A DNA stretch of 64,000 bases from Bdellovibrionales bacterium (GCA_965203275.1 OZ241865.1:2272001-2336000); one strand, 5' to 3'; positions 1-37,290 are shown, counted from the stretch's first letter. The notes: generated from the sequence alone by a model not told the origin. A program made the numbers and translations.

Positions 1-11
1 TAAAGAAGGGA

Positions 12-113
12 TCACTTGCCACCTCTAAAAGGTGGCATTTGTTTTATGAGTATTTTACAACAATGACTAGGATTATTTGTGATGACTGATTCTAGATATT
101 CAACTTGATACAT
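12..113 (-). pseudogene. Truncated RelE/ParE-like toxin remnant (33 codons)
   Basis: My translation: MYQVEYLESVITNNPSHCCKILIKQMPPFRGGK*. The start overlaps the antitoxin 3' end, the first ~12 aa resemble a RelE/ParE N-terminus, and the ORF then runs into a GC hairpin (17-37). Confidence 0.4.
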
Positions 114-336
114 TACGCCAAGCCTTTTTATGAGGTATACGTTTTTGTTTTTTTTGAGATAGACGTCGATCGGCTACCTTAGAAAAATAAAAATCTTCTT
201 GTAATTCTAAAGCTTGATGAATTAAGTCTAAGCTCAATGTAGAAAGTTTTTGTTGTTTCTTTTGAGATAACTTATCTAATAATAAATAAGTTTGATGGTC
301 TATTGTTAAATTGATCTTTTTTTTCATAACAGGCAT
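100..336 (-). CDS. Ribbon-helix-helix (CopG-like) antitoxin
   Basis: 78 aa; KKINLTID beta-strand then helices; C-terminal ELQED...IPHKKAW typical of type II antitoxins. Confidence 0.6.
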   Translation of the reverse strand: MPVMKKKINLTIDHQTYLLLDKLSQKKQQKLSTLSLDLIHQALELQEDFYFSKVADRRLSQKKQKRIPHKKAWRNVSS

Positions 337-433: not shown

Positions 434-1375
434 TTATATTTGCTTATTAGGGATGCAAGAGTATTTAGAGGCTTCATATCTTTTAGTAATTTGTTCACAC
501 CTTGTTTTAATAGAGCAAAATAATTCTTTATCAATTTGAAAGTTTGCTGGTGTAAATAAATCAATCCTTCGATCTTGCCTTATACGTTTTGCTTTAGTAA
601 TAATTCTTTCTTGGGATTCTTTTGGATCAAACACGCCAATAGTCATCCCTCCTCTGGCTCTCACAAGGGAAAAGGCAGGAATATCTGTATCCCCATCGCC
701 AATATAAATCATGTTTTCAAATGGACACCATTCTTCCCCTTTAGATACAAAGTCGTCCACCTTGTATGAAGATTGCTTTTTAAAACAGCCCTTTTGGATT
801 TCAAATAAGGCTCTTGTTTTAGACGTTTTATCCATACAGTAGATAGGGATATTTTTTTCAATTTTTTTAGTCTTTATATCTTTAATAGCTTTATATTTAC
901 ATCCAAAAAATTGATGAATTAGAGAAGTTTCTTTGTGACATTCAAACACAGAAGATACTAAGTCCTGAAGCCCTGCTGTTATAATAAAATGATGTATGGC
1001 CATATTGTTATCTTGATAGAGTGGTTGAGAGGATAAGTTTTTTATTTCTTTAAGTCCCTTTAAAACATCAGGGTAAAATTTTATTTTATAAGCAATAAGA
1101 CTTTCAAATGTTCCTTTATCATCTAAAGCTATTTTTTTGCCTTGCTGATCTTTAGCTATTTCTGACAAGCGATACATCCAAACAGGAGCTTCACTGGTTG
1201 AGATAGAATCCATTGGTTCTTTTGCATCTACTCCTGATATTTCTTTCACATCTATCCAAAACTGTTTTGTTGCTTTTTTTCCTATAAAAAGTTCAATTAA
1301 CTCAGTTGTAGAATCATTTGAAGTAAGGGTTTTGTCAAAGTCCCAGATTATAGCAATATTGTTTTTTTTATTCAT
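434..1375 (-). CDS. HAD-superfamily hydrolase
   Basis: Motif I WDFDKT, motif II ITAG, motif IV YIGDGDTD. Start moved to ATG 1375 (MNKKNNIAII) to avoid overlap with the upstream ORF. Confidence 0.85.
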   Translation of the reverse strand: MNKKNNIAIIWDFDKTLTSNDSTTELIELFIGKKATKQFWIDVKEISGVDAKEPMDSISTSEAPVWMYRLSEIAKDQQGKKIALDDKGTFESLIAYKIKFYPDVLKGLKEIKNLSSQPLYQDNNMAIHHFIITAGLQDLVSSVFECHKETSLIHQFFGCKYKAIKDIKTKKIEKNIPIYCMDKTSKTRALFEIQKGCFKKQSSYKVDDFVSKGEEWCPFENMIYIGDGDTDIPAFSLVRARGGMTIGVFDPKESQERIITKAKRIRQDRRIDLFTPANFQIDKELFCSIKTRCEQITKRYEASKYSCIPNKQI

Positions 1376-1388
1376 ATTTAAAACACAT

Positions 1389-1889
1389 TTATTGAGGTGG
1401 TTGATTTGATACTTCTTGCTCTTTTTTTCTCTTTTCTTCTCGCTTGTAAAACTCTTTCCAGTTTTCTTGGACTTGTGGGTCATCCCAAGCTTTCTTATTA
1501 AGCTGTTGAATCCTTCCATAATCAAAAGGCTTTTGAGATGTGTCCATTTCTTTTTGTTTTTCAGCTTTTTCTTTTTGCTTTCTTATTTTTTCTCGCTTGT
1601 AAAACTCTTTCCAGTTTTCTTGGACTTGTGGATCAGCCCAAGCCTTCTTATTAAGTTGTTGAATCCTCTGATAATCAAAAGGCTTTTGAGATGTGTCCAT
1701 TTCTTTTTGTTTTTCAGCTTTTTCTTTTTGCTTTCTTATTCTTTCTCGCTTGTAAAACTCTTCCCAATTTTTTTTGACTTGTGGATTAGCCCGGGCCTTT
1801 TCTTTGAGTTGTTGAATGTTGCTATAATCAAAAGGCTCTTGAGATGTGTCCACTTCTTTTTGTTTTGTGATGGTTGCTACTTTACTCAT
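1389..1889 (-). CDS. Hypothetical charged protein made of three 51-aa tandem repeats
   Basis: GGAGG RBS upstream; 153-nt period (GAGATGTGTCC at 1535, 1688, 1841); repeat unit DTSQKPFDY..IQQL..KA..PQV..NW.EFYKRE. Confidence 0.7.
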   Translation of the reverse strand: MSKVATITKQKEVDTSQEPFDYSNIQQLKEKARANPQVKKNWEEFYKRERIRKQKEKAEKQKEMDTSQKPFDYQRIQQLNKKAWADPQVQENWKEFYKREKIRKQKEKAEKQKEMDTSQKPFDYGRIQQLNKKAWDDPQVQENWKEFYKREEKRKKEQEVSNQPPQ

Positions 1890-2013
1890 TATAATACCTC
1901 CTTTAGATTTATATTTAGCATAGTATTATGCTATTTTGTACTTATGTTCATAATAATACATTTTTATAATAATGTCAAAAAATCTCGAGGCCATCCTATC
2001 CTCTTATTTTTTA

Positions 2014-5000
2014 TCAAGATGTTTTATTATTTAACAACCACTGTTTTACTTGTGTTGTTTTTGGAATTGTGAACTCAACTGTTACTATATCATCAAATGA
2101 TTTAATTTTAACTTCATTTCGATCTTTAGGAAATTTAAAAGGTTGAGAAAACCACTGAAAATCTGAAGACATAAGATGATAATCGCTTCTATTGGTTTCT
2201 TTTGCTTTTTTAAAATTTTCTTTATCTTCATAGAGTTTAATTTTTCCTTTCCATGAATCTCTCTTAGAAATAAAAGGAATAGAAATTTTACCAATATCGG
2301 CTATATTCATAGTGATCTTTGCATCACATCGACCTGAATCTTTATGCCTAACTTTAGCACATTGAATGCAACTATCAGTTATATCTTTTTGAGATATAGT
2401 CATCCATTCTATGGGTTCAATATTCCAGCTTTGAGGTAATCCTGAATAATGTTTTTTAGGTACAGAGTTTTGACTTAAAATAGTATGGGGCCTATCTTTT
2501 CCTTCAAGTCCATACTTTGCCAATGAATCGTCTGATACTGTTTGAATAATTGTTTTTCTATCCCATGTGTTACGTCTTAATCGAATATTTCCTATTGTTG
2601 TAAGTATAGGCAATGAATATACTTTTTTTACTTTTTGATGTGGATGTTGATGATCTTCTTCACGACGAAATAAAAGACACTGTTGAAGAAACTTTTGCAA
2701 AGATTGATTGGGATCAGTTTCATCAAGCTCTGATTTAAGTTTTTCCCAAGAACTATAAAAAGGTAACAAAATTTTATCTTTACTAATAAACTTTTGATTT
2801 TTCTTTTCTATGATGCACTTACTCCAATTGTCAATAGCATCTTTGACTGTTTGAGGCTCTTTTTTGCCATTTGGTGTGAGTGCTGTTTGGATTTTAGTTT
2901 TGATAGTTTGATAACTTAGACCATCAAGTAATTTAGCTTGCTTTTTTTCATCTTTGTCTGCTTCACGAATACCAATATCCATCAGAAATTCTTGTGCCTT
3001 TTTCTTATTTATAAACCATAATTGATAATTTTCATCTGAAAATTTTGATCTTATCAAAAACTCCTGATCTCTTAATAAGTGAAAATCTTTTTCTTGATAA
3101 GATACTGCATTTTTGGGATGAAATCCTTTTTGTATTGTACCATCATCATTTTGAATCAATGGGAAAAATCTCTCTCCTATACTATTATCTCTATGTATCT
3201 TATAACTGATTTTAATTTGTTCTTTTTTATTTTGACTTAATAATTGGCGATGATGAGTTTCTACTGTGTAAGCTTTTCTTTTTTCTAAACATTTCTCTTG
3301 CAGTTGGTTTGGTGGAACTTTGATTAGATTAAAAATAAGGTTTTTAGTCACTTCACCTGTGCCTCTATTCATAGGCTCTAAATGAATATTTTGATCTATA
3401 TTGAGTTTAAGGCTACCCTCCTTCTTATGTTGATCTACTGCAATGGCAAAAGCTAAAGTAGCGTCTATTAAATGAGAATACGGCTTTTGAGAGTTACCTT
3501 CTTTAGCATAATCTTTGAATTCTGAAATATTAGAATATTTTTCATAATCTTTTCTTAGATCATAAATGCCATCACCTCTTGTATTAGACTGAGCCTCTAC
3601 TCCAAACCAATCAAAGCAAATTTGATCTTGCCAACCAGCACGTTTAGCTTTTTTATAAAAATTATTAGCAAGTACTTGAGCAAAATGTGGTTGTGTCCCA
3701 TTAACAAATGTCTTTGAACGGCTACTAATAGCATCAATGACTTTTTGATGCAATTCATGGTCTGTTAAAAATAAAGCATGTCGAAAAGCCCTCTGCTCAT
3801 CAGAAGTTAAGTTGATCAAGTTAGTGTATTTGCCAAACTTAAAATCTTCACCTTTACCATGACCTATTTGCTCCTCAATCCACTTCATAATCTTTTGATG
3901 ATCTGTTGTACCAAATAATTTTTGTTTGTATTTATTATGTAATTTTTGTATTTGTAAAGGATTGTTTCCTTTTGTCTTTAATTTATCAATACCTTCTAAG
4001 TAATAAACGACTTTATCATCTGTTAATCTTTTTTGATTCTCTGGTTGTTTTTTATTATCTGTATTTTTTGCATTTGGATTTTGATCTTGAGAATCAATAA
4101 ATTTCTCTAACTGTTGATTTGATATTTGCAAAACAGTAGCTAAGTCTTTTAATAACTGGTAACGCTTTTGCCGAGGCTTGTGATTACAATAAGTTAAAAG
4201 ACAATCCCGATCTTCAAATCGACCTGTATCTTCATAGCCTCGCCCTTTAACCAAACGATATCGTGGGTGGATAAATAATCTGCCATCTTTTGCCCTTTGC
4301 CTTAATTTGTAATATTTGCAAAGTAAATGAAGAAATGATTTTTGCTCAAATAAATCATCTGTTTGAAAGTTTGGTGTTGTTTCTAGGTGATCTGGTAACT
4401 CACTCTTTTTGATCACATCTTCTAATTTGCTTTTGGTTTCTGAAATATCTTGGCCATCTCTTTTAAGTTGTTTGATTTTTTTAGCATGGCTAAAAATTTC
4501 ATTGAGGTTTAAAGGATCATCCTTTTTAACTCTATCAAAAATAAATTGCAAAATCCTTGCATCAAGGTTTTTTTGATTTCTCTTATAGGTATCTTTTTTC
4601 AATTGATCAGCTTTTTGATTGTTAAAATATGGCTTCTTTTGACCACTTTGTAGACCTTTTAGCTCACTTTCAAAATCTTCTAAATAATTTTGAGATAACT
4701 CTTTAAGGCTACTTAGCCACTCTTGCCATTGAGGATATTTGCTATCTAAATATACAGGATTAAGAATTAAGCTTTGACAATGAGGAGGACGACGATTGTT
4801 ATTATTTTGATAAGGAGGAATGGTCCATTTAGGGTCTTCTCTAAGCCAAAAGTCAATCACACTGCCTGTTTTGTTTTCTTTATCATAATAAGTTTTCCAG
4901 CATTTTTTTAGTTTGTTATAGTCATAAGCTTCATCTTGGCTTTTGTCTTTGTCTTTTTCTGTCACACGCCATTGTTTATCAAGCCATCTATCAAAATATT

Positions 5001-6393
5001 TATTAAGTCTTTTTTCACACCAATAGTCACCTTCTTGATGCTTGAAATCATTAAAGTATTTTCTGAGAGGTTTTAGTTCTAAATTACTGAGATGACCAAT
5101 TAAGTGGGTAAGGCTCTCAACAGTGAGAGGCTCTCTGTTTGTTGGTTTATATCTTTTTGAATGCAGATTTGAATGCAAATGATCACAAAACACTTTTAAA
5201 AATTTATTTTGCTTCTTTTGTTTTTCAGAATGATTTTTATATTCTAAAACATTTTTAACTTCTTCAAAGTATTTGCTACGATGACGACCACCTGATTTGA
5301 GTTCCTCAAGATTTTGATAGATTGCAAAAGCCAAATGATTCAAATGTGTTTTCTTCCATTCAAGTTTCTTTTTTTGATAGTCATTGTCTTTTGATTCTTC
5401 TCTTTCTGGCTCATCAAAAGCATTTTCTTCTATCTTTTTATCTAAGTCTTTAAAACTTTCTGATTTAAAATTCCAAAAAGAGTTTTTTATCTCCTGATCT
5501 TCTGTATCCGGCTCTGGAAGATGATCTTTTAATTTTTGAATGTTTTCTTTTCTATCTTCTAAATACTTAATGAAATTCATTGTGTTAGAACTAAATGCTG
5601 ACTCTTTGTTTTGCTCTGTTTCATTTTCTTCTTTCCAATGATCCCATTCTTTTAATATTGATGAAAAGAAATCTTGAGTTTGCTGATGAGAACTTTGTTT
5701 CTGCCATTCCTCTATAATCCATCTTGATACATCAGATAATTTTGATTTGTTTTTATTTTGCTTATCTTTGTAATATTTTTGAGGATCTGTACAAAGCTTT
5801 TTAATTTCTTTTGTTCTACTAATGAATACTTGCCTTGAGGCCATTCTGTTAGGTTCTTTATTTATAGCTTCATATATTTTATCTAACTTTTCTTGTCCTT
5901 CTTTAGTCCATTCTTGTATGGCTGTATCAAAATCATAGCCATCTTGATTTTTCTCAACTCCATCTGGTAATTCTTTTGGCAATTCTTCTGGTAATTCATT
6001 ATAAACCTCTGTTGGAAACTGGCTTAAAATTTCAGCATTATACTGCTCTGTCAAAAAACTAAAGCCTCTGCGGTTCAACAAAAAACTAATGGTTTGTTGT
6101 ATGTCAGAATTCCACTCTAAACCAAACCTCTCACACCAAATCAACTTAAAAAGCCTTTTGACCATTTGACGACGGTCAAATCCTCTCTTTTGATGACGTT
6201 GAGCTGTGCGATCTCTCATCAACAATGTATAAGCGTCTTTTTCTAGCTGATAAATCTTACCCTTTTGATTAAGAGAAGTTTTAGAGCTTAACTCTGTTCC
6301 TTCAACATAATGAGCCGTATAAACTCCAGTTGCTTTAGCTCCTAAATCAATAGCAATAGGATGAATTATTTTTTTCTTGCGATTTTGAGACAT
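2014..6393 (-). CDS. cas9: Type II-B (Francisella-like) Cas9, 1459 aa, apparently lacking RuvC-II and the HNH active site
   Basis: IHPIAIDLGAKATGV (RuvC-I), bridge helix RTAQRHQKRGFDRRQMVKRL, SGGRHRSKYF, LSNLELKPLRKYFND, TIPPYQNNNNRRPPHCQSL, YCNHKPRQKRYQLL, RAFRHALFL, SHLIDATLAF (RuvC-III) all match recalled FnCas9 blocks. No DHIIP-type HNH motif. ATG 6393 has a GGAGG RBS. Confidence 0.93.
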   Translation of the reverse strand: MSQNRKKKIIHPIAIDLGAKATGVYTAHYVEGTELSSKTSLNQKGKIYQLEKDAYTLLMRDRTAQRHQKRGFDRRQMVKRLFKLIWCERFGLEWNSDIQQTISFLLNRRGFSFLTEQYNAEILSQFPTEVYNELPEELPKELPDGVEKNQDGYDFDTAIQEWTKEGQEKLDKIYEAINKEPNRMASRQVFISRTKEIKKLCTDPQKYYKDKQNKNKSKLSDVSRWIIEEWQKQSSHQQTQDFFSSILKEWDHWKEENETEQNKESAFSSNTMNFIKYLEDRKENIQKLKDHLPEPDTEDQEIKNSFWNFKSESFKDLDKKIEENAFDEPEREESKDNDYQKKKLEWKKTHLNHLAFAIYQNLEELKSGGRHRSKYFEEVKNVLEYKNHSEKQKKQNKFLKVFCDHLHSNLHSKRYKPTNREPLTVESLTHLIGHLSNLELKPLRKYFNDFKHQEGDYWCEKRLNKYFDRWLDKQWRVTEKDKDKSQDEAYDYNKLKKCWKTYYDKENKTGSVIDFWLREDPKWTIPPYQNNNNRRPPHCQSLILNPVYLDSKYPQWQEWLSSLKELSQNYLEDFESELKGLQSGQKKPYFNNQKADQLKKDTYKRNQKNLDARILQFIFDRVKKDDPLNLNEIFSHAKKIKQLKRDGQDISETKSKLEDVIKKSELPDHLETTPNFQTDDLFEQKSFLHLLCKYYKLRQRAKDGRLFIHPRYRLVKGRGYEDTGRFEDRDCLLTYCNHKPRQKRYQLLKDLATVLQISNQQLEKFIDSQDQNPNAKNTDNKKQPENQKRLTDDKVVYYLEGIDKLKTKGNNPLQIQKLHNKYKQKLFGTTDHQKIMKWIEEQIGHGKGEDFKFGKYTNLINLTSDEQRAFRHALFLTDHELHQKVIDAISSRSKTFVNGTQPHFAQVLANNFYKKAKRAGWQDQICFDWFGVEAQSNTRGDGIYDLRKDYEKYSNISEFKDYAKEGNSQKPYSHLIDATLAFAIAVDQHKKEGSLKLNIDQNIHLEPMNRGTGEVTKNLIFNLIKVPPNQLQEKCLEKRKAYTVETHHRQLLSQNKKEQIKISYKIHRDNSIGERFFPLIQNDDGTIQKGFHPKNAVSYQEKDFHLLRDQEFLIRSKFSDENYQLWFINKKKAQEFLMDIGIREADKDEKKQAKLLDGLSYQTIKTKIQTALTPNGKKEPQTVKDAIDNWSKCIIEKKNQKFISKDKILLPFYSSWEKLKSELDETDPNQSLQKFLQQCLLFRREEDHQHPHQKVKKVYSLPILTTIGNIRLRRNTWDRKTIIQTVSDDSLAKYGLEGKDRPHTILSQNSVPKKHYSGLPQSWNIEPIEWMTISQKDITDSCIQCAKVRHKDSGRCDAKITMNIADIGKISIPFISKRDSWKGKIKLYEDKENFKKAKETNRSDYHLMSSDFQWFSQPFKFPKDRNEVKIKSFDDIVTVEFTIPKTTQVKQWLLNNKTS

Positions 6394-6431
6394 AAAACCT
6401 CCATAAGGCTCAATATAAGTGCTAAAATCGC

Positions 6432-6461
6432 TAAGGTATAACAATCTTTATTTATTGTCAA
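6432..6461 (-). promoter_or_regulatory. Putative sigma70 promoter of cas9
   Basis: Minus strand TTGACA-N17-TACCTT, about 40 nt upstream of ATG 6393. Confidence 0.45.
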
Positions 6462-6592
6462 ACTCAATCGTCAGACCCATTCATTAAGAGTGACCTTTAG
6501 AGATCTCATGCGAGGGGATCGTGTTTTTCTCTATAATACATCAAATTGTCAGAGTGTTTCTTTAGGAAGTGGTATAGTGGGAGATAATATTC

Positions 6593-6619
6593 CGGGATCC
6601 GGCATCCGGCAACCCGGCA
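6593..6619. repeat. GC-rich heptamer array (GATCCGG/CATCCGG/CAACCCGG)
   Basis: ccgggatccggcatccggcaacccggcaac; related arrays near 8385, 10147, 21904, 34074 and 57101. Confidence 0.75.
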
Positions 6620-6836
6620 ACAAAATGACAAAAGGAAAAGGAAATAAGGCAGAAAAAATGCGTAAAGACATTATAAATGGTTAGAAAGATTGAAAATATT
6701 TTAAACCTTTTCAAAATAAAATTTGTGGATGCTAAATTTTATAAAAAGATGTTGACAAACAAAATAAAATATGGTTTACAGACAGTTTTTAGTCTACAAA
6801 TAAAAAACAAAAATAAAGCTGTGAATTACTTACATT

Positions 6837-8129
6837 GTGAAAAAGATAATTTTATTACGTCAAGTCATTTTATTATGCATGCTATTTTTGATGGCCACAG
6901 ATGTTGCTGAAAGCCACACAGCAGATCAAATTTGTACTCATGTTCTCATTACAACCGATGATCAAAGGTTGGTTCATCTAAAGAAATATCTTGAAACTTA
7001 TAATAAGAAACCTTTTGACCAACCCAAAACCTCATTAGCAGAAGCCCTCGCAGAAATATTGTTACACATAAACCCTACTTTCAATAGAAAAATACCTTCA
7101 GATGCAACTGTAAAAAGAAATGTCTCTAATAGTACAATTGATGAGTATCAATTTTCAGATGATATTTTCAAACTCTATCGTTATCTTTCTTTTAACAGAG
7201 ATGAAGGTTCTGTACATTATGGAAGATGGCTTTTTTTCCAAATAAATCAAGAGCCTATAGAACATCCACTGGCCACAACTTACAATATACAACATACAGG
7301 TGTTGTGCTAACAATCGAATCCTTAGATAGAAATCTATATCGATATCATCTTTATTATATTGAAGATCAAGGACTTATTTTAGAAACTTTTGATCCTATA
7401 GTAGGGTTTGACTTTTATCTATCTTACAAAATAGACGATATACATATTGTTCTGCCTCATAAACAATCATATTTAAAGAGTAAAATGAAAAAACGTAATG
7501 ATTATTATATCCATTTGAATGAATATTCTATCAATCAAAATGCAAATATTTTTAGAAGAATGTTTAACCATCGAAAAATAGAGGATAACTATCAATTTAT
7601 ATCCTATGAGAATAATGAAAAAGAAATTGTTCCAGGTAAGATTCTTAATATTACAAGTCGTGTGACAGTTAAAGGTTTAATGGGCATTTTCTCCTTAGAC
7701 AACAGAGAAGAACTCAATAGTGTTTGGGTAGATGAAATATTGGGTGAAATTCTTATAACTTCTTATTTTTCAGAAGATAAAAATAAACCTTTTGACCCTT
7801 ATGCATTTATGAAGCCTCTGCCTCCTAAAAAGCCTCTTGATTATTATAGTGCTTTTAGATTTGCAAAAATTTTTCAATCAGGCCATTTAAAAGAGGATGA
7901 ACGTTTTATTTCTTATCCTATATCTCATCCAGATGGTCAAAGACGTATTGCTCAAATTATTCAGTGGGATGAATATCAAATGCAACTGATAGAATACAGA
8001 GGCAATGGAAAACCTTTTGTATTTAATCGAATTATATTATCAAGTAAACTTTTAGATAATATAACAATCAGTCGATATGCTAAAGAATATTTTACTCAAG
8101 TGGACTTTAATCGTTACTTATTTCACTAA
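6837..8129 (+). CDS. Secreted hypothetical protein
   Basis: 430-aa ORF with a signal-peptide-like N-terminus (MKKIILLRQVILLCMLFLMA); stop codon lies in the repeat end TTTCACTAA. Confidence 0.7.
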   Translation: MKKIILLRQVILLCMLFLMATDVAESHTADQICTHVLITTDDQRLVHLKKYLETYNKKPFDQPKTSLAEALAEILLHINPTFNRKIPSDATVKRNVSNSTIDEYQFSDDIFKLYRYLSFNRDEGSVHYGRWLFFQINQEPIEHPLATTYNIQHTGVVLTIESLDRNLYRYHLYYIEDQGLILETFDPIVGFDFYLSYKIDDIHIVLPHKQSYLKSKMKKRNDYYIHLNEYSINQNANIFRRMFNHRKIEDNYQFISYENNEKEIVPGKILNITSRVTVKGLMGIFSLDNREELNSVWVDEILGEILITSYFSEDKNKPFDPYAFMKPLPPKKPLDYYSAFRFAKIFQSGHLKEDERFISYPISHPDGQRRIAQIIQWDEYQMQLIEYRGNGKPFVFNRIILSSKLLDNITISRYAKEYFTQVDFNRYLFH

Positions 8130-8497
8130 AAGTGGTCTGACCTCTGGTCACTTTCTGGTTGCCAGCCGAAGGCTTTCGCCTTCTCAAATGCTGGCAACCT
8201 AGAAAGCCTGACCACTTTTAGTAGGGAGGATCTCCTCGTTTCTTAACAGGATGTTAAGGAAACAAAATGCTTTCAAAATTATATTAAAAGAGCAATGTCT
8301 CAAAAATCCGTTTATTTTTAGTAGGGAGGATCCTCTTGTCTCTTTACACGATGTTAAGGAAACAAGGCGTTTGCTTCACCCTTGCCTGATGCCGAGTTGC
8401 CGGTTTAGCTCACTAAAAGTGGTCTAGCCTCTGGCTACTTTCTGGCAATGACCACGATGGCTCTCGCCGTCGATCAAAGGCTAAAAACCCACTTTTT
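8121..8497 (+). repeat. Family A structured repeat cluster (REP/BIME-like)
   Basis: Full hairpin 8125-8222 (ACTAAAAGTGGTC...GACCACTTTTAGT), GTAG-GGAGGATC module, TTAACA-N3-TGTTAAGGAAAC palindrome and partial copies. Confidence 0.9.
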
Positions 8498-8748
8498 CAT
8501 GGGTTTGACAATTCTTAGCTATCATTTAATCATCGTGAAAGCCACAATAAAGCCACTTTCATAGAAAACTTTAACTTTAAAAGTTAAATAAAATTAAATA
8601 AAAGTTTACTTTTAATTTAAAAGGTTTATAATAATACTAAAGGTAGGTTGTAGGTTAAAATGACAAAAGTCTATCTTTTTTCTAAAATTTATGTATAAAG
8701 CTCCGATTAAATAAAATAAACATAGATCATAAAAACAGGGAGGCTTTT

Positions 8749-9138
8749 ATGATAGAGGATACTCCAAAGAATGGAGATTCGGCAGGACATGAACAAATCT
8801 CACAGAATAATACGAAAGGGTATTTTTGGACACCAAAAGATGTTGTAATTTTTTCTTTTGGAATCTTAGGCAGTCTTCTTTTGCTTCTTATAGTTGGTGT
8901 CGTTAGTGTTGCAGGAAGTTTGTTTTTTGTCGGTAGCATGTTAAATGAGCCTATCAAATCACAAATAAGCAGTTTCGAAGCAAAGCTTGATGAAAAATTT
9001 GATAGTCTAGCCGAGCAAAATAAAGAGTTTCAAGAAGCAATGATTGAACGAAATGAAAAGTTTGAAAAAGCAATGATTGAACGAAGTGAAAAGTTTGAAG
9101 ATACAGTTATTGACATTGTTAGAGCTTCAAATAATTGA
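8749..9138 (+). CDS. Small membrane protein with C-terminal coiled coil
   Basis: GGGAGG RBS; hydrophobic stretch at aa ~31-63; 11-aa tandem repeat EAMIERNEKFE/KAMIERSEKFE. Confidence 0.7.
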   Translation: MIEDTPKNGDSAGHEQISQNNTKGYFWTPKDVVIFSFGILGSLLLLLIVGVVSVAGSLFFVGSMLNEPIKSQISSFEAKLDEKFDSLAEQNKEFQEAMIERNEKFEKAMIERSEKFEDTVIDIVRASNN

Positions 9139-11869: not shown

Positions 11870-12169
11870 AATTTTATACCTTGCTTTTTAAGATAGATTA
11901 TATCAACTTGTGACTTTATTTACTTGCTATTTTAAACTTCCTGCGTGATATATATGCAAAAAGCAGGCCTATTTGAAATAGCCCTCATTTGAATATAATG
12001 GTTTTAATTTTGAATAATTGCCGGAATTTGAACAAAAAACTATAAATTAAGTGACAAAATAAACTTCCTGAGTTGGATAGCTGAAAAATAAATTTAAGAG
12101 AGCAGTCAACATAATGATGACTTTCTCTGAATAAAAACTCTGAATAAAAATAGGACCTACAAATATATT

Positions 12170-24046: not shown

Positions 24047-27000
24047 ATGAAGGCAATGACCAGTCAAGAAATAGAAAACAAATTTGTTGAATTTTTTGAA
24101 AACAAAGGACACAAGCATGTAAGTAGCTCCTCTTTGATCCCAGAAGGCAAAGACTTGCTGTTTACCAATGCAGGGATGAATCAATTTAAAGATATCTTTT
24201 TAGGTTTAAAGATACCTTCCTACAAAAGAGCTGTCACAGTCCAAAAATGCTTTCGAGCCAATGACCTGGACAATGTTGGCAAGACCCCTCGTCATCATAC
24301 CTTCTTTAAAATGTTGGGTAATTTTTCCTTTGGTGATTATTTTAAAAAGGAAGCTATCGAATGGGCATGGGAATTTTTAACTCATCCCGATTGGCTTGGT
24401 ATTGATAAAAGCCGATTTTATGTGACTGTTTTTGACACTGATGATGAAGCCCTTTGGGAGCAAATTTGGCAAAAAGACAAAGAGGCTATCAAACGAAACA
24501 AATATGCATTTATTAAAAAAGATAAAGATAACTTTTGGGAGATGGGATCGGTTGGCCCTTGCGGACCTTGCAGTGAGATTTTTTATAGTTATGGAGATCA
24601 CGACTCTCAGAGTCAAGACTCTCAGAGTCAAGATGTAGAAATTTGGAATTTGGTTTTTACTCAATCTGACCGGCAAAAAGATGGCTCTTTAAAAAAGCTT
24701 AAAGGTGGGCCTTTTATAGATACAGGGGCCGGATTAGAAAGACTAACAGCAGTGATGCAAGGGGTGGAAAGCAATTTTGAGACTGATATTTTTATGGATC
24801 TCTTTGGCTATTTGTTAGAGGAAAAGGTCATTGTAGCTACAATAAGAGCTTGGAGAAAAGGTATACAACAACCAAAGAATGAATCAGAAGCAAAAATACA
24901 AGATGAAAATATTAGACAAGTTTTTGATACTTTCCTTAAGGATTTATCTGATCATTTACAATTAGAGAGTGTCCCTAAAATGTCTGAAGATAGTCTTTCC
25001 AGATGGTTCTTTATGGATTATATTGGAGAATTTCAAAATATATTTGAAGGAATTCTTAAAAAACTAAATACACCTAATCAAAGAAAGGCTTTAATTAATT
25101 TTTTATGTGAATATCTTCAAAAAGACAGAACTCTTAGAGAAGATACAAAAAACTATAAACAAAATTTACTAAAACAAACAATAAATGAAGATCAGAAAAA
25201 ACAAAACCGTATTGCCCTTTTAAAAATAGCAGATCATGCCAGAGCTATAGCCTGTCTTTTAACAGATGGGGTGACTTTTCCAGATGAAGGACGTGGTTAC
25301 GTGGCAAGAGATATTTTTAAAAGAATGTGCAAATGTTTAGAGAAAATAGGTATCAGTATAATTGCTTCAACCCGTTATTATATGCCAAAGTTGCCAGCTT
25401 CCTTAGAGCGTAATTATTATACTCCCTGTTTTCTAGTCAACTATTTTATAAAACCAATAGATATTTCTTCATCATCTGAAGAAAAAAAACAATATCGTTT
25501 TATTATGGATTCAATAGTTAATGAAACTATTCGGCATGCAAATAAAGATGAAATGAAAGAAAGAGATCATCAAATATACAGCAATCGAGAGAAAATAAAA
25601 GATAAAATAAAAGAAATAAAACAAAGTGAAGAAAAAATTAAAAAATTAAAAAAAGAAATAGAAGAAAAGAAAAAAGCACTTCAAAAAACAAGCAGTCAAA
25701 AAAATAAAGATGACAGTGTGTTAATCACAGAAGAAGAAATAAAAAAGACAATTAAACAAAATAAAGATGAAATTGAAAAAGAAGAACAAAAGATAAAAAC
25801 AAATGCAGGGCCAATTCAAAAAGTAGAAAAAGAAATAGAAGAAAAGGAAAAAGAACAAACAGAGGACTTAAAAGAAGCTAAAGACGAAAAAATACAAAAA
25901 AAAGAAAATATATTCCATAAAGAGTTTGAAAAAGCATTTCAAAATCAAATACCATCACCGGAAGCACTTGGAGCATTTGCCTTTAAAATCTTTGAAACTT
26001 ATGGCATCTCTAAAGAGGGTATAAAACAGCTACTTCAAAAAAGAGATATTCAATTGAATGAAGATTTTGATAAAAGCTTCAAAGATGCAATGGAAAAAGT
26101 AAAAAAAGCAAGCTCACAAGAATATATAACTTCACAGGAAGAACATCTTAAAAAACTATGTAGACAAGCAAAAGCTAGTCTTTGTCTTTTCACCCAAAAA
26201 CATCTTGAAAAACTATGTGAAAAAATAAAAGCTAGTCTTTCCATCCAAGAACATTTTGTGGGGTATGATACTTTATCAACTCAAACACAAATTTTAAAAT
26301 TATCTGATGGCCAGCAAGAAGTTCAGCAACTACCAGCAGGGCAAAAAGGGTTTGCCTTCTTTAAACAAACACCCTTTTACGCTGAATCTGGTGAACAAAT
26401 GGCAGATCAAGGGGCAGTTAAGAACTTATCACAAGAAACTCTAGCTCAAATAACAGATTGTCAAAAATATGAGAATATTCATTATCACAAAATCCAAATC
26501 AAAAATAACATCCTCAGAGTCAACGACAAAGTTATATTACAGGTCGATTCTGAAAGACGTGCAGAAACTAAAAAGCATCACACAGCTAGTCTTTCCATTC
26601 AAAAATATTTTGTAGAACATTTTGTAGGGTATGATCAGCTATCAGCTGAAACACAAATTTTAAAATTATCTGATGGCCAGCAAGAAGTTCAGAAGTTGCC
26701 AGCAGGGCAGGAAGGCTATGCCATCTTTAAACAAACACCCTTCTACGCTGAGTCTGGCGGACAAATTGCAGATCAAGGGGAAGTTAAGAACTTATCACAA
26801 GAAACTCTAGCTCAAATAATAGATTGCCAAAAGTATGAGGATATTCATTATCACAAAATCCAAATTCAAAATAACATCCTCAAAGTCAATGACAAAGTCA
26901 TATTACAAGTCCACCCTGAAAGACGAGCAGAGACTAAAAAACATCACACAGCTACTCACCTCCTCCATGCAGCTTTAAAAGAGAAATTAGGAGATCTTGT

Positions 27001-27817
27001 CACACAGCGTGGTTCATTGGTTGCAGAGGATCATCTTCGCTTTGACTTCACTCATTCAAAGCCAGTCACCCCTCAAGAAATATCTCAAATAGAAAAACTG
27101 ATCAACAATCAAATTGCACAAGCCCTGCCTGTAACGACCACTATTGAAAAAGTAGAGGACGCAAAAGCCAAAGGGGCAGTGGCTTTTTTTGCTGAAAAAT
27201 ATCCTGAAAAGGTACGCGTATTATCGATTGGTCACAACAAAGAATCCATAGAGCTTTGCGGTGGCACACATGTTAAGAACACCAGTGAAATTCAAGCCTT
27301 TGTCATTACACTAGAAGAGAGCATCAAAGGAGGTATTCGTCGGATCAAAGCCCTAGCAGGTCAATCAGCTATCAAGTATCTTTTAGAGCAGAGCAAAAAA
27401 CTCACAGTAGCTCAACAAGAAGCTCAAACAAAAAAGCTGACTGAATGGATTCGGCAGAGTCAACAAAACAACAAAGCTCTTAATAAACAAGTACAAAAAC
27501 TCACAGTAGCTCAAATCGATATTGACGCACTTGTTGCTGGGGCTACTGCAATAGAAGGCGGTCAACAAGTCAAAGCCATTTTAGAGATTAGTGATCGAGA
27601 GGCTTTAAGGCAGATCACCGATCGCATTAAAAATAAATTGGATGCAGGGATTGTGATTGTGATGGGGCAGGGTGAAAAGGGACCTTTGATGGTGGCAGTA
27701 ACTCAAAACTTAAAAGACAAATACAATGCTGTCATAGAGCTTAAAAAATACGGACAGGGAGGTGGTCGCCCTGATTTTGCTCAAGGCTTTCACTCCGTTT
27801 CTTTTCACTCAAAATAG
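24047..27817 (+). CDS. alaS: Alanyl-tRNA synthetase, expanded (1256 aa)
   Basis: LLFTNAGMNQFK, RHHTFFKMLGNFSFGDYFK, GPCGPCSEI, HHTATHLLH, ELCGGTHV, GGGRPDFAQ; carries insertions and an internal duplication. Confidence 0.95.
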   Translation: MKAMTSQEIENKFVEFFENKGHKHVSSSSLIPEGKDLLFTNAGMNQFKDIFLGLKIPSYKRAVTVQKCFRANDLDNVGKTPRHHTFFKMLGNFSFGDYFKKEAIEWAWEFLTHPDWLGIDKSRFYVTVFDTDDEALWEQIWQKDKEAIKRNKYAFIKKDKDNFWEMGSVGPCGPCSEIFYSYGDHDSQSQDSQSQDVEIWNLVFTQSDRQKDGSLKKLKGGPFIDTGAGLERLTAVMQGVESNFETDIFMDLFGYLLEEKVIVATIRAWRKGIQQPKNESEAKIQDENIRQVFDTFLKDLSDHLQLESVPKMSEDSLSRWFFMDYIGEFQNIFEGILKKLNTPNQRKALINFLCEYLQKDRTLREDTKNYKQNLLKQTINEDQKKQNRIALLKIADHARAIACLLTDGVTFPDEGRGYVARDIFKRMCKCLEKIGISIIASTRYYMPKLPASLERNYYTPCFLVNYFIKPIDISSSSEEKKQYRFIMDSIVNETIRHANKDEMKERDHQIYSNREKIKDKIKEIKQSEEKIKKLKKEIEEKKKALQKTSSQKNKDDSVLITEEEIKKTIKQNKDEIEKEEQKIKTNAGPIQKVEKEIEEKEKEQTEDLKEAKDEKIQKKENIFHKEFEKAFQNQIPSPEALGAFAFKIFETYGISKEGIKQLLQKRDIQLNEDFDKSFKDAMEKVKKASSQEYITSQEEHLKKLCRQAKASLCLFTQKHLEKLCEKIKASLSIQEHFVGYDTLSTQTQILKLSDGQQEVQQLPAGQKGFAFFKQTPFYAESGEQMADQGAVKNLSQETLAQITDCQKYENIHYHKIQIKNNILRVNDKVILQVDSERRAETKKHHTASLSIQKYFVEHFVGYDQLSAETQILKLSDGQQEVQKLPAGQEGYAIFKQTPFYAESGGQIADQGEVKNLSQETLAQIIDCQKYEDIHYHKIQIQNNILKVNDKVILQVHPERRAETKKHHTATHLLHAALKEKLGDLVTQRGSLVAEDHLRFDFTHSKPVTPQEISQIEKLINNQIAQALPVTTTIEKVEDAKAKGAVAFFAEKYPEKVRVLSIGHNKESIELCGGTHVKNTSEIQAFVITLEESIKGGIRRIKALAGQSAIKYLLEQSKKLTVAQQEAQTKKLTEWIRQSQQNNKALNKQVQKLTVAQIDIDALVAGATAIEGGQQVKAILEISDREALRQITDRIKNKLDAGIVIVMGQGEKGPLMVAVTQNLKDKYNAVIELKKYGQGGGRPDFAQGFHSVSFHSK

Positions 27818-35667: not shown

Positions 35668-37290
35668 CTAATTACTTTGGCCTGTTGATCCCCCACCTTT
35701 CTGATCAGTGGGATCATGTTGATCTGTTGCAGGGTCATAACCATCAGAATGTTCTACAGATCCTTGATCTGTTGGATCTGTTGTGTATCCAGTGGCTCCC
35801 CCTTGACCATATCCACCTTGTCCACCCTGTTGACCATATCCACCTTGTCCACCCTGTTGACCATATCCACCTTGTCCACCTTGTTGACCATATCCACCTT
35901 GTCCACCCTGTTGACCATATCCACCTTGTCCACCTTGTCCTTGACCATGTCCACCCTGCCTTGGATGTCTATATGAAGGATCCTGTCCTCCTTGTTGATT
36001 ATAAGGATCTTGTTGTCCGTACCCACCTTGTCCAGTAGAGGATCTGTACGGATGACCCTCTTGTTGACCATACCCTTCTTGTGCTGGAGCTTCTCCCCCA
36101 TAACCACCTTGTTGCATTGCTCCATATCCACCACCCTGCCCTTGACCATGTCCTCCTACTGGCCCGCCTTCATAAGGTGGCCCAGCAGGTCCACCAGGTC
36201 CAGCAGGTCCACCAGGTCCAGCAGGTCCACCAGAGCCTTGTTGCTGATATCCTGCCCTCATAGCCATGTTTTCATTGTTGTTATCCATCATTTCAATAGA
36301 AGAAGGAGGCCATCCATCAACTCTCATCCCTAAACTCAAATTCATACTTGTAAGTATTTCTTTAATTTCATTTAAGGACTTCCTTCCAAAGTTTTTTGTT
36401 TTGAGCATATCAGCTTCTGTCTTTGTAACAAGCTCTCCAATATAACGAATATTTGCATTTTTTAAACAGTTAGCACTTCTAACTGATAACTCCAAGTCAT
36501 CCACAGATCGAAATAAATTATCATTCAGTTGTGGCATAGCAGCTTCTTTTGCTACCTCTTGTACTTCTACAACTTCATCAAAATTAATAAAGACTTGAAC
36601 TTGCTCTTTGATAATCTTAGCAGCTAGAGTACATGCCTCATCTGGCTTTAAAGATTCATCTGTCCAGATTTCTAAGACAAGTCGATCATAGTCTGTTCTC
36701 TGTCCCACACGAGCATTCCCTACATGGTAATTGACTTTTCGAACAGGACTATACAAACTATCTACAGCAATAAAATCTACTGGTAAATCAGTCTTTTGAT
36801 CAGAATAAAGCACATAACCTCTACCAAACCGGCATATAATTTCAGCATGAAATTTACCATTTTCTCCTAGTGTACATATATGCTGATGAGGATTGATCAC
36901 AGAGATTTTATCATTGACCTGAATATCAGCTGCTGTCACTGGACCTTGCCCTTCTTTAACGATTGTGAGAGTGACAGGCTCTGGAGTAAACTGACGAAAA
37001 CGTACTTCTTTAAGGTTTAAAATAATATCAGTCACATCCTCTAACACATCAGGAATAGTCGTAAACTCATGGAGTACCCCTTCAAAACGCACGGCAGCCA
37101 CTGCCGACCCCATCATAGAACTGAGCAAAACTCTCCGAAGGGAGTTGCCTAAAGTTGTCCCATAACCCCTCTCTAAAGGTGCAATGGTAAACTTCCCATA
37201 ACCATCTGTTAAAGAGTCTTGATCTATGTCAAAAGACTTAGGCTTAATTAGCTTTTGCCAAAATTGATTGTAATGCTTTTGAATTTCCAT
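35668..37290 (-). CDS. rpoA: RNA polymerase alpha subunit with a long Gly/Gln-rich C-terminal tail
   Basis: [44 protein letters not shown]; ~210 extra aa after GWPP. Confidence 0.96.
35803..35940 (-). repeat. 27-nt coding tandem repeat (QGGQGGYGQ) x~5 in rpoA
   Basis: ttgaccatatccaccttgtccaccctg repeated; also an 18-nt GPAGPG repeat x3 at ~36179-36232. Confidence 0.9.

Follow-up and report, generated by a model that had tools for sequence, protein, structure and literature searches.

A type II-B cas9 with an in-frame deletion through its nuclease domains, probably a recently inactivated gene in a recombined and decaying defence locus

A Cas9 that can no longer cut DNA may persist as an RNA-guided binder, or it may be the product of a gene caught early in its loss. 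This question is raised by cas9-delta, a type II-B cas9 in an uncultured Bdellovibrionales-related bacterium from sponge-associated samples (GCA_965203275.1). The window, the whole stretch of 64,000 nucleotides (nt) that was analysed, starts at position 2272001 of the genome sequence (G000; OZ241865.1), and cas9-delta occupies 2014..6393 of it on the minus strand. An initial annotation made from the window took the gene for an orphan, naturally nuclease-dead Cas9 and inferred a domesticated DNA binder or regulator, naming early decay as the alternative. Early decay fits the evidence better. At a probability of roughly 60%, cas9-delta is a cas9 that lost its activity recently, within a II-B locus that has recombined and is decaying. 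Under this reading a II-B cas9 allele would have lost about 800 bp in frame, leaving a protein unable to cut either strand, and a second, different II-B cas9 in the same defence island would have been reduced to its last 274 codons. The frame would be open still because the deletion happened to preserve it and the time since then has been too short for stops to appear. The II-B system would, we infer, recently have ceased interference and now be undergoing loss, while three further CRISPR-Cas loci (II-C, V-A and type I) are still there.

An in-frame deletion from REC3 into HNH

The cas9-delta open reading frame (ORF) runs uninterrupted for 1459 residues from its ATG, as annotated, but lies on the minus strand; the frame is open up to a TTG at 6444, from which it would encode 1476 residues. 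Frame lesions of the pseudogene kind (stops, frameshifts) are not present in the 1459 codons. A Shine-Dalgarno-like GGAGG, read directly in the sequence, stands 4 nt 5′ of the ATG (6398..6402, minus strand), and the annotated ribosome-binding site is thereby retained; the promoter signals annotated with it are given up, promoter-like matches near the gene being at chance level (54 observed vs 49.9 expected from shuffled sequence). Descent from a type II-B Cas9 is supported by a Csx12-type recognition (REC) lobe (Pfam PF21069, E 5.5e-96, 323 bits vs a cut-off of 27) and by a two-block alignment with the solved FnCas9, which uphold the original assignment. The NCBIfam model TIGR03031 is matched at 379.9 bits, below its equivalog cut-off of 399.4, over profile positions 1-583 of 802. 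The RuvC-I aspartate (D16, codon 6346..6348) in an invariant column and the RuvC-III histidine and aspartate (H974 to D977, codons 3463..3474) in invariant or nearly invariant columns, all on the minus strand, are kept, in line with the initial annotation. The REC lobe is the only Pfam match in the protein; HNH is not matched, PF01844 and PF13395 being absent at E up to 1.

The protein of cas9-delta (Q) aligns with FnCas9 (chain 5b2q_A, E 7.7e-218) as residues 10-770 to 8-694 and 805-1292 to 998-1477, and with P0003, its nearest full-length homologue (1685 residues), as 8-776 to 7-758 and 795-1453 to 1025-1681. Judged against P0029, at 65% identity the closest relative, the stretch Q 771-807 remains native REC3, and the break therefore lies between codons T807 (3975-3973) and K808 (3972-3970), that is between window positions 3973 and 3972 (junction codons 3970..3975, minus strand), inside the previously estimated interval of about 3965-3985. 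Measured against P0003 the gap amounts to about 265 residues (about 773-1037), and against FnCas9 to about 280 (about 721-1000). The lost segment of about 800 bp comprises most of the REC3 clamp and the remaining REC3, together with RuvC-II, the L1 linker and the core of HNH.

The extent of the loss is clear from an alignment of Q with 70 full-length homologues, the first 70 of 98 sequences of 1580-1800 residues obtained from a protein-cluster search. Fifty-one columns conserved in at least 95% of the family are absent from Q, all of them within P0003 776-1033, and none of the other 70 sequences lacks more than two of the columns conserved at this level. Gapped in Q are the conserved REC3-clamp columns (P0003 776-880), every conserved column of the RuvC-II motif P-I-I-x-E-x-N-x-F-x-F-E-P with its catalytic Glu (943-955) and the columns of the HNH motif D-H-I-x-P-R...N-D-E-x-N...N (1007-1033). 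That RuvC-II and the HNH core were lost in frame, as claimed, is thus borne out; no intact HNH or RuvC-II motif is found in Q in the alignments to FnCas9 and other II-B Cas9 proteins, and the deleted segment is encoded nowhere else in the genome (tblastn). The borders of RuvC-II in FnCas9 and the place of N995 among its HNH residues are taken here as assumptions. Because the RuvC-II and HNH motifs are missing, both nuclease sites should be dead and neither DNA strand should be cut, which agrees with the initial annotation. The loss also reaches a control element, as the REC3 clamp of FnCas9 (residues 710-801) is described in the available text of PMC12231574 as the checkpoint that licenses HNH when it docks and as conserved across II-B.

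A composite II-B locus in a near-clonal population

The "orphan" status of cas9-delta is an artefact of the window's edge, and similar calls close to an edge need checking. Past the left edge, at 0-5.6 kb, are the cas1, cas2 and cas4 genes, a trans-activating CRISPR RNA (tracrRNA) and an array of 24 repeats. Read in the direction of the cas genes, cas9-delta is followed by a 166-residue ORF, a haloacid dehalogenase (HAD)-like gene, a 78-residue ORF and the antisense tracrRNA. Next come a 274-residue cas9 remnant, cas9B (G000 2270971-2271795, minus strand), directly upstream of cas1 in two frames (2269831-2270795, minus), then an intact cas2 (2269520-2269837, minus) and an intact cas4 (2268955-2269557, minus), two tracr-like copies (2268237-2268358 and 2268741-2268886, plus) and the array (2266380-2268103). 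The arrangement of a II-B locus (cas1-cas2-cas4, antisense tracrRNA, array) is therefore present, with cas1 frameshifted and the tracrRNA displaced. A search of the genome with TIGR03031 finds one place only.

The two cas9 sequences are of different origin. Over 245 residues the cas9B remnant shares 51% identity with positions 1401-1640 of the 1653-residue Cas9 of a genome of the same genus (G001), but only 36%, over 96 residues, with the Q C-terminus. In a tree of the C-terminal region the remnant is sister to the G001 Cas9 (100/98), and Q belongs to the other main clade with P0003 and a Francisella philomiragia Cas9, the split between clades being supported at 100/100. Two relatives at equal organismal distance (PolA 69% identical) carry one cas9 type each, the genome of P0029 the type of Q and G001 that of the remnant. 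Since the remnant and Q fall into separate clades and each type occurs alone in one relative, the locus is, as judged from these comparisons, a composite of two II-B cas9 lineages. The cas1, cas2 and cas4 genes are not assignable to either lineage, being at about 48-63% identity about equally far from all relatives, and synteny with G001 is not preserved. The HAD-like gene and other unrelated genes occupy the place where adaptation genes would follow cas9.

The adaptation module carries a lesion of its own. In this genome cas1 has a 1-nt frameshift, with which contigs from two sequencing runs (X1 and X3) agree, and one contig from a third (X7) has an extra G that restores the frame to 322 residues, 59% identical to the G001 Cas1. 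As X1 and X3 carry the frameshift and X7 has the restoring G, the frameshift is real, recent and polymorphic between samples.

Decay of II-B cas9 is common among relatives. The 265-residue segment lost from Q is whole in 18 of 21 related loci, and the other three contain only short N-terminal cas9 fragments, the stubs in L038, L042 and L043 from other metagenome-assembled genomes (MAGs) covering the first 94-141 residues of P0003. Open cas9 frames of 1595-1698 residues are found in the relatives G001, G003 and G011, short split cas9 ORFs occur in other assemblies (P0124-P0129), and the P0029 ORF ends just after RuvC-II and just before HNH; its C-terminal partner ORF was not found, the best short match being 52% identical. 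These degraded loci resemble the present one, with the difference that the cas9-delta ORF has neither stop nor frameshift and its guide-RNA genes look intact. The nearest named relatives by PolA are Bdellovibrionales MAGs at 46-53% identity.

The deletion itself is a singleton confined to a near-clonal population. None of the 70 homologues or 21 loci has it, protein scans of genome_contigs and metagenome_contigs with Q recovered no relative that shares it, and an exact 40-nt flank has no match in metagenome_contigs. The three assemblies that carry the gene differ by 1 residue in 1476, and contigs add two differences, one synonymous and one R89G. As 6.35% of the possible substitutions in cas9-delta would create a stop, this tiny divergence leads to an expectation of only about 0.1-0.2 stops. 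Because the sampled population is near-clonal, the open frame is uninformative between decay and function.

Decay weighed against function

The preference for early decay over a domesticated binder has five grounds. The neighbouring cas9 is a remnant; cas1 is frameshifted; the deletion occurs only in a near-clonal population; it is shared by no diverged lineage; and it crosses domain borders, from inside REC3 through RuvC-II into HNH, where loss of a module would have respected them. If Q is dead, the more likely case, the locus offers a clear example of how CRISPR loci are rebuilt and lost in defence islands, with cas9 of two lineages in one place, its tracrRNA displaced, a cas1 frameshift that is polymorphic and a candidate defence gene set among its cas genes.

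A body of observations weighs against this reading, beginning with the protein. The deletion is in frame, for which the prior is 1 in 3, and 1459 codons are open in DNA of 31% G+C, where the other two frames contain 89 and 193 stops; the allele is present in runs of at least three studies. Conservation outside the deletion is normal, Q keeping 209 of 217 conserved columns (the 6th lowest of 71 sequences, where the median is 98.5%). Its distance to eight outgroups is no greater than that of P0029, which gives no indication of prolonged neutral drift. Changes specific to Q affect 3 of 22 conserved columns in 859-923 vs 2 of 188 outside (p = 0.009, Fisher), in a region picked post hoc and with p = 0.058 and 0.074 at lower conservation thresholds. 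Such a cluster beside the lost HNH could mean that time has elapsed under constraint elsewhere in the protein. The largest departure from the family consensus (z = -3.36) lies within this region, at Q 864-903 (3685..3802, minus strand), spanning the last part of the HNH region and the first part of RuvC-III, with the changes R882H, N891S, R894K, R902P and Y903H, among them non-conservative ones such as the last two. None of the 71 sequences diverges more there than Q, but 9 of the 71 have an equally extreme window somewhere.

The guide RNAs belong to the same body of observations. An 11-nt core motif of the II-B tracrRNA occurs once per locus in 15 related loci, lying between cas4 and the array and antisense to cas9 where its position was checked (L024, L025 and L030). 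In this genome it is displaced to 11964-11974 of the locus stretch L011 (in which 15972 is window 3972), just upstream of the cas9B remnant. A covariance model built from the 15 relatives, with this genome left out, matches a full-length tracrRNA at L011 11913-12042 with 76.6 bits (E 2.9e-17). The RNA spans window positions -87..42 antisense to the cas genes, so that its 3′ end and terminator fall at 1..42 (plus strand); that end is the best terminator-like site of the region, and the RNA folds with z = -4.27. It pairs with the repeat over all 38 nt at -37.3 kcal/mol, compared with a mean of -15.9 and a best value of -27.7 for 200 shuffles, and 23 of the 24 38-nt repeats of the array are identical, with spacers of 33-37 nt. 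A gene for RNase III is also present in the genome. The RNA parts of a working effector complex thus look intact at the level of sequence and predicted pairing. The two tracr-like copies at the canonical position reach only 19 bits with the same model and pair with the repeat at only -22.9 kcal/mol, within the shuffle range; the surviving canonical tracrRNA is the one nearest cas9-delta. A proposal that the copies represent a separate "type B" tracrRNA was dropped, as the G001 tracrRNA is also of the canonical kind. No family was found in the locus with Rfam. A ~230-nt segment that includes degenerate tracr-like sequence is duplicated in the interval between cas4 and the array (L011 8163-8393 and 8667-8886, 97-98% identity), and a two-repeat, two-spacer unit is exactly duplicated within the array (7329-7475 and 7476-7622, spacers 13/14 = 15/16).

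These observations are what would be expected of a working, naturally nuclease-dead Cas9 (dCas9), a tentative alternative to which a clearly smaller but still appreciable share of belief is given. Such a protein would load the CRISPR RNA (crRNA) paired with tracrRNA, bind targets flanked by a protospacer-adjacent motif (PAM) and stay bound; with the REC3 clamp and HNH gone, it would be fixed in a non-cleaving state. By analogy it might block transcription or replication of invaders, as Cas12m does, or repress chromosomal genes, as FnCas9 does with the small CRISPR/Cas-associated RNA (scaRNA). The more specific proposal, a natural type II dCas9 that silences invaders or genes by binding alone, with the tracrRNA and the 23-spacer array as guides and a RuvC-II strand dispensable for binding, is a shade more doubtful. 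The open frame, the in-frame deletion and the good ribosome-binding site would suit this alternative, as would the cognate tracrRNA and its full complementarity to the array's repeat.

Published systems lend it plausibility. The available text of PMC12231574 describes FnCas9 repressing without cutting while its REC3 clamp is undocked, that of PMC8476515 describes SpCas9 variants without HNH or REC3 that retain DNA binding and CRISPR interference with transcription (CRISPRi), and Cas12m protects by binding according to what is available of PMC11013384 and PMC10442227. FnCas9 (PDB 5b2o/5b2q, 9ehf and others) is of the same family as Q with the same domain order, and its locus likewise has the tracrRNA core, an array transcribed antisense to the cas genes and a cas1-cas2-cas4 module. 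Unlike Q, FnCas9 has residues ~721-1000, with most of the REC3 clamp, RuvC-II, L1 (N931) and the HNH core, where H969 is the residue altered in a nickase (PMC8996390, available in part). FnCas9 represses through a short scaRNA match yet stays an active nuclease, whereas Q, judging from its missing motifs, could never cut. Should Q still be able to bind its targets, it would stand as the first nuclease-free Cas9 found in nature, a snapshot of an RNA-guided nuclease evolving into a binder in a subtype with known cleavage-free repression, and a naturally minimised scaffold for engineers, ~170 residues shorter than FnCas9. A literature search confined to listings of papers turned up no report of a natural nuclease-free Cas9 or a natural Cas9 without HNH.

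The fold of the remaining protein may speak against a natural dCas9. In Cas9, RuvC-II forms the central strand of the RNase H-like RuvC sheet and bears the Glu, and this strand is deleted in Q as well. An AlphaFold2 model of Q residues 1-1200, made with 41 sequences, has a mean predicted local distance difference test score (pLDDT) of 74.3 and a predicted template-modelling score of 0.46, with pLDDT below 50 at 738-759, 765-812 and 890-900; the junction is modelled as helices, with no substitute strand. The prediction contains no confident fold around the junction to replace the lost part. A Foldseek search with the model returned FnCas9 chains best (E 2.8e-52), thus only finding FnCas9 again. 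In engineered dCas9 (Sternberg delta768-919; MISER SpCas9), HNH or REC3 is lost with binding and CRISPRi kept, and the large tolerated deletions, in REC2, REC3 and HNH as well as RuvC-III, are reported to end at domain termini and keep RuvC-II; no tolerated SpCas9 deletion across RuvC-II was seen in the available text of PMC8476515. Q differs in having a single natural deletion that passes through RuvC-II.

The distribution of the allele and the targets of its spacers point the same way. In Cas12m, the TnpB-derived TldR and exapted Cas12f homologues, guide-directed binding blocks or steers transcription (PMC11013384, PMC10442227, PMC10705468 and PMC13472631, each available in part). These are whole families conserved in numerous lineages, their active sites altered and their activity tested, whereas Q is one allele of a type II effector in one near-clonal population. 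The guide-RNA genes are intact in the manner of such binders, but no conservation of the inactive form by purifying selection over diverged lineages is seen. Decay affects the flanking cas genes, and an open frame would be expected in this population under neutrality too. No spacer matches the host's own chromosome outside the CRISPR arrays above chance-level short ones, no solitary scaRNA-like repeat was found, and an outlier window as strong as that of Q is seen in 9 of 71 sequences. Recent inactivation in a decaying locus remains the better account of these findings.

Two further explanations fare worse. In the first, Q would keep a role outside interference, in crRNA maturation together with tracrRNA and RNase III, in PAM selection during spacer uptake by Cas1-Cas2-Cas4, or as a dominant-negative sponge for guide RNAs. 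In type II-A adaptation, nuclease activity is dispensable, and the guide-RNA genes, RNase III, the intact cas2 and cas4 and the intact cas1 allele in run X7 are all compatible with such a role. The first spacer in the V-A array (L044 11324-11350) and spacer 2 in the II-B array (L011 6564-6599) overlap, with 26 of 27 nt in agreement, and therefore both systems once sampled the same invader, a trace of past uptake. Spacer 2 is the only one with an own-genome match above chance-level short ones, which is this match in the V-A array; no exact match was found in viral_contigs for the cores (24-26 nt) of 4 of the 21 distinct spacers. The role is improbable, as the crRNAs have no active II-B nuclease remaining to employ them (TIGR03031 is found in a single place and cas9B is a 274-residue remnant), cas1 is frameshifted in this genome, and no benefit is evident from such a role alone.

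The second explanation would have the deletion as an artefact of assembly or consensus, or as a minority variant, with the gene full length in most cells. In two runs, each of a different study, a Logan contig (X1 record 8, depth 45.7; X6 record 21, depth 2) stops at L011 15972 (window 3972), where codon K808 has its first base and where the junction precisely lies, and no piece bridging it is among the 32 of 170 pieces listed. Ends that coincide to the base in two runs are as expected of branching in an assembly graph; they may reflect such a branch and hence a second allele in the samples, and a minor second cas9 allele is conceivable. The X1 and X3 contigs also have holes across much of cas9 although 99% of words are present. 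Against this, the identical 1476-residue ORF is recorded on two contigs, the longer of 2,582,838 bp, and a third (61,662 bp) has a variant with one residue changed (A for T at 753). All or some of the stretch is present in 12 public runs from five studies, at least half of the sampled words being found in seven, six of which contain 92-99%; none of the public runs listed as containing it is an RNA run. The X6 depth bin over the junction is full (2.19 vs ~2 elsewhere), which implies that pieces beyond those listed run past L011 15972, and a collection of 5.8 billion protein clusters has no near-identical full-length protein, the next match after the 100% one being 53% identical. Because the same ORF occurs in two other assemblies, misassembly is unlikely, and an artefactual or minority deletion has very little to recommend it.

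Neighbouring genes and other CRISPR systems

The three genes between cas9-delta and the tracrRNA lie within the window on the minus strand. The 166-residue ORF (1389..1889) contains three 153-nt tandem repeats and has no family found. DxDxT and GDGxxD motifs are present in the HAD-like phosphatase gene (434..1525), for which PADLOC gives a match to its phage-defence candidate PDC-S34 (positions 1-274 of a 284-position profile, E 1.7e-45), and this match beside cas9-delta marks the region as a defence island. The 78-residue ORF (100..336) has no family and is ribbon-helix-helix-like by eye only. Families of repeats of ~90-150 nt, ~60-90% alike, flank the array and nearby genes (L011 1395-1730, 4122-4214, 5826-6383 and 8510-8664) and look like a dispersed intergenic repeat. 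Past the array is a gene for a DUF6119 / TIGR04141 "sporadically distributed" protein (L011 2391-3974, minus strand).

Of the other CRISPR-Cas loci of the genome, the II-C one has an array, cas1, cas2 and an intact Cas9 of 1047 residues; one more is V-A, and the third, of type I, stands beside an IS256 transposase. At the V-A locus (L044, G000:C1:234001-252000) two divergent type V effector genes stand back to back at 1349-4297 (minus strand) and 4802-8779 (plus strand), beside cas1, cas2 and a Cas12a-type array. A 1325-residue protein matches the PADLOC Cas12a models, and a 982-residue ORF matches only positions 327-1287 of the Cpf1 model and is therefore 5′-truncated; no likeness between the two effectors is detected by BLASTP. 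The pattern of an effector and a remnant is the same as at the II-B locus.

Elsewhere in the window, the alanyl-tRNA synthetase gene (24047-27817, plus strand) encodes 1256 residues, the alaS model of 847 positions being matched in three stretches with ~400 extra residues. The RpoA ORF (35668-37290, minus strand) encodes 540 residues where RpoA models end near residue 340, indicating either a C-terminal extension of ~200 residues or a wrongly extended frame.

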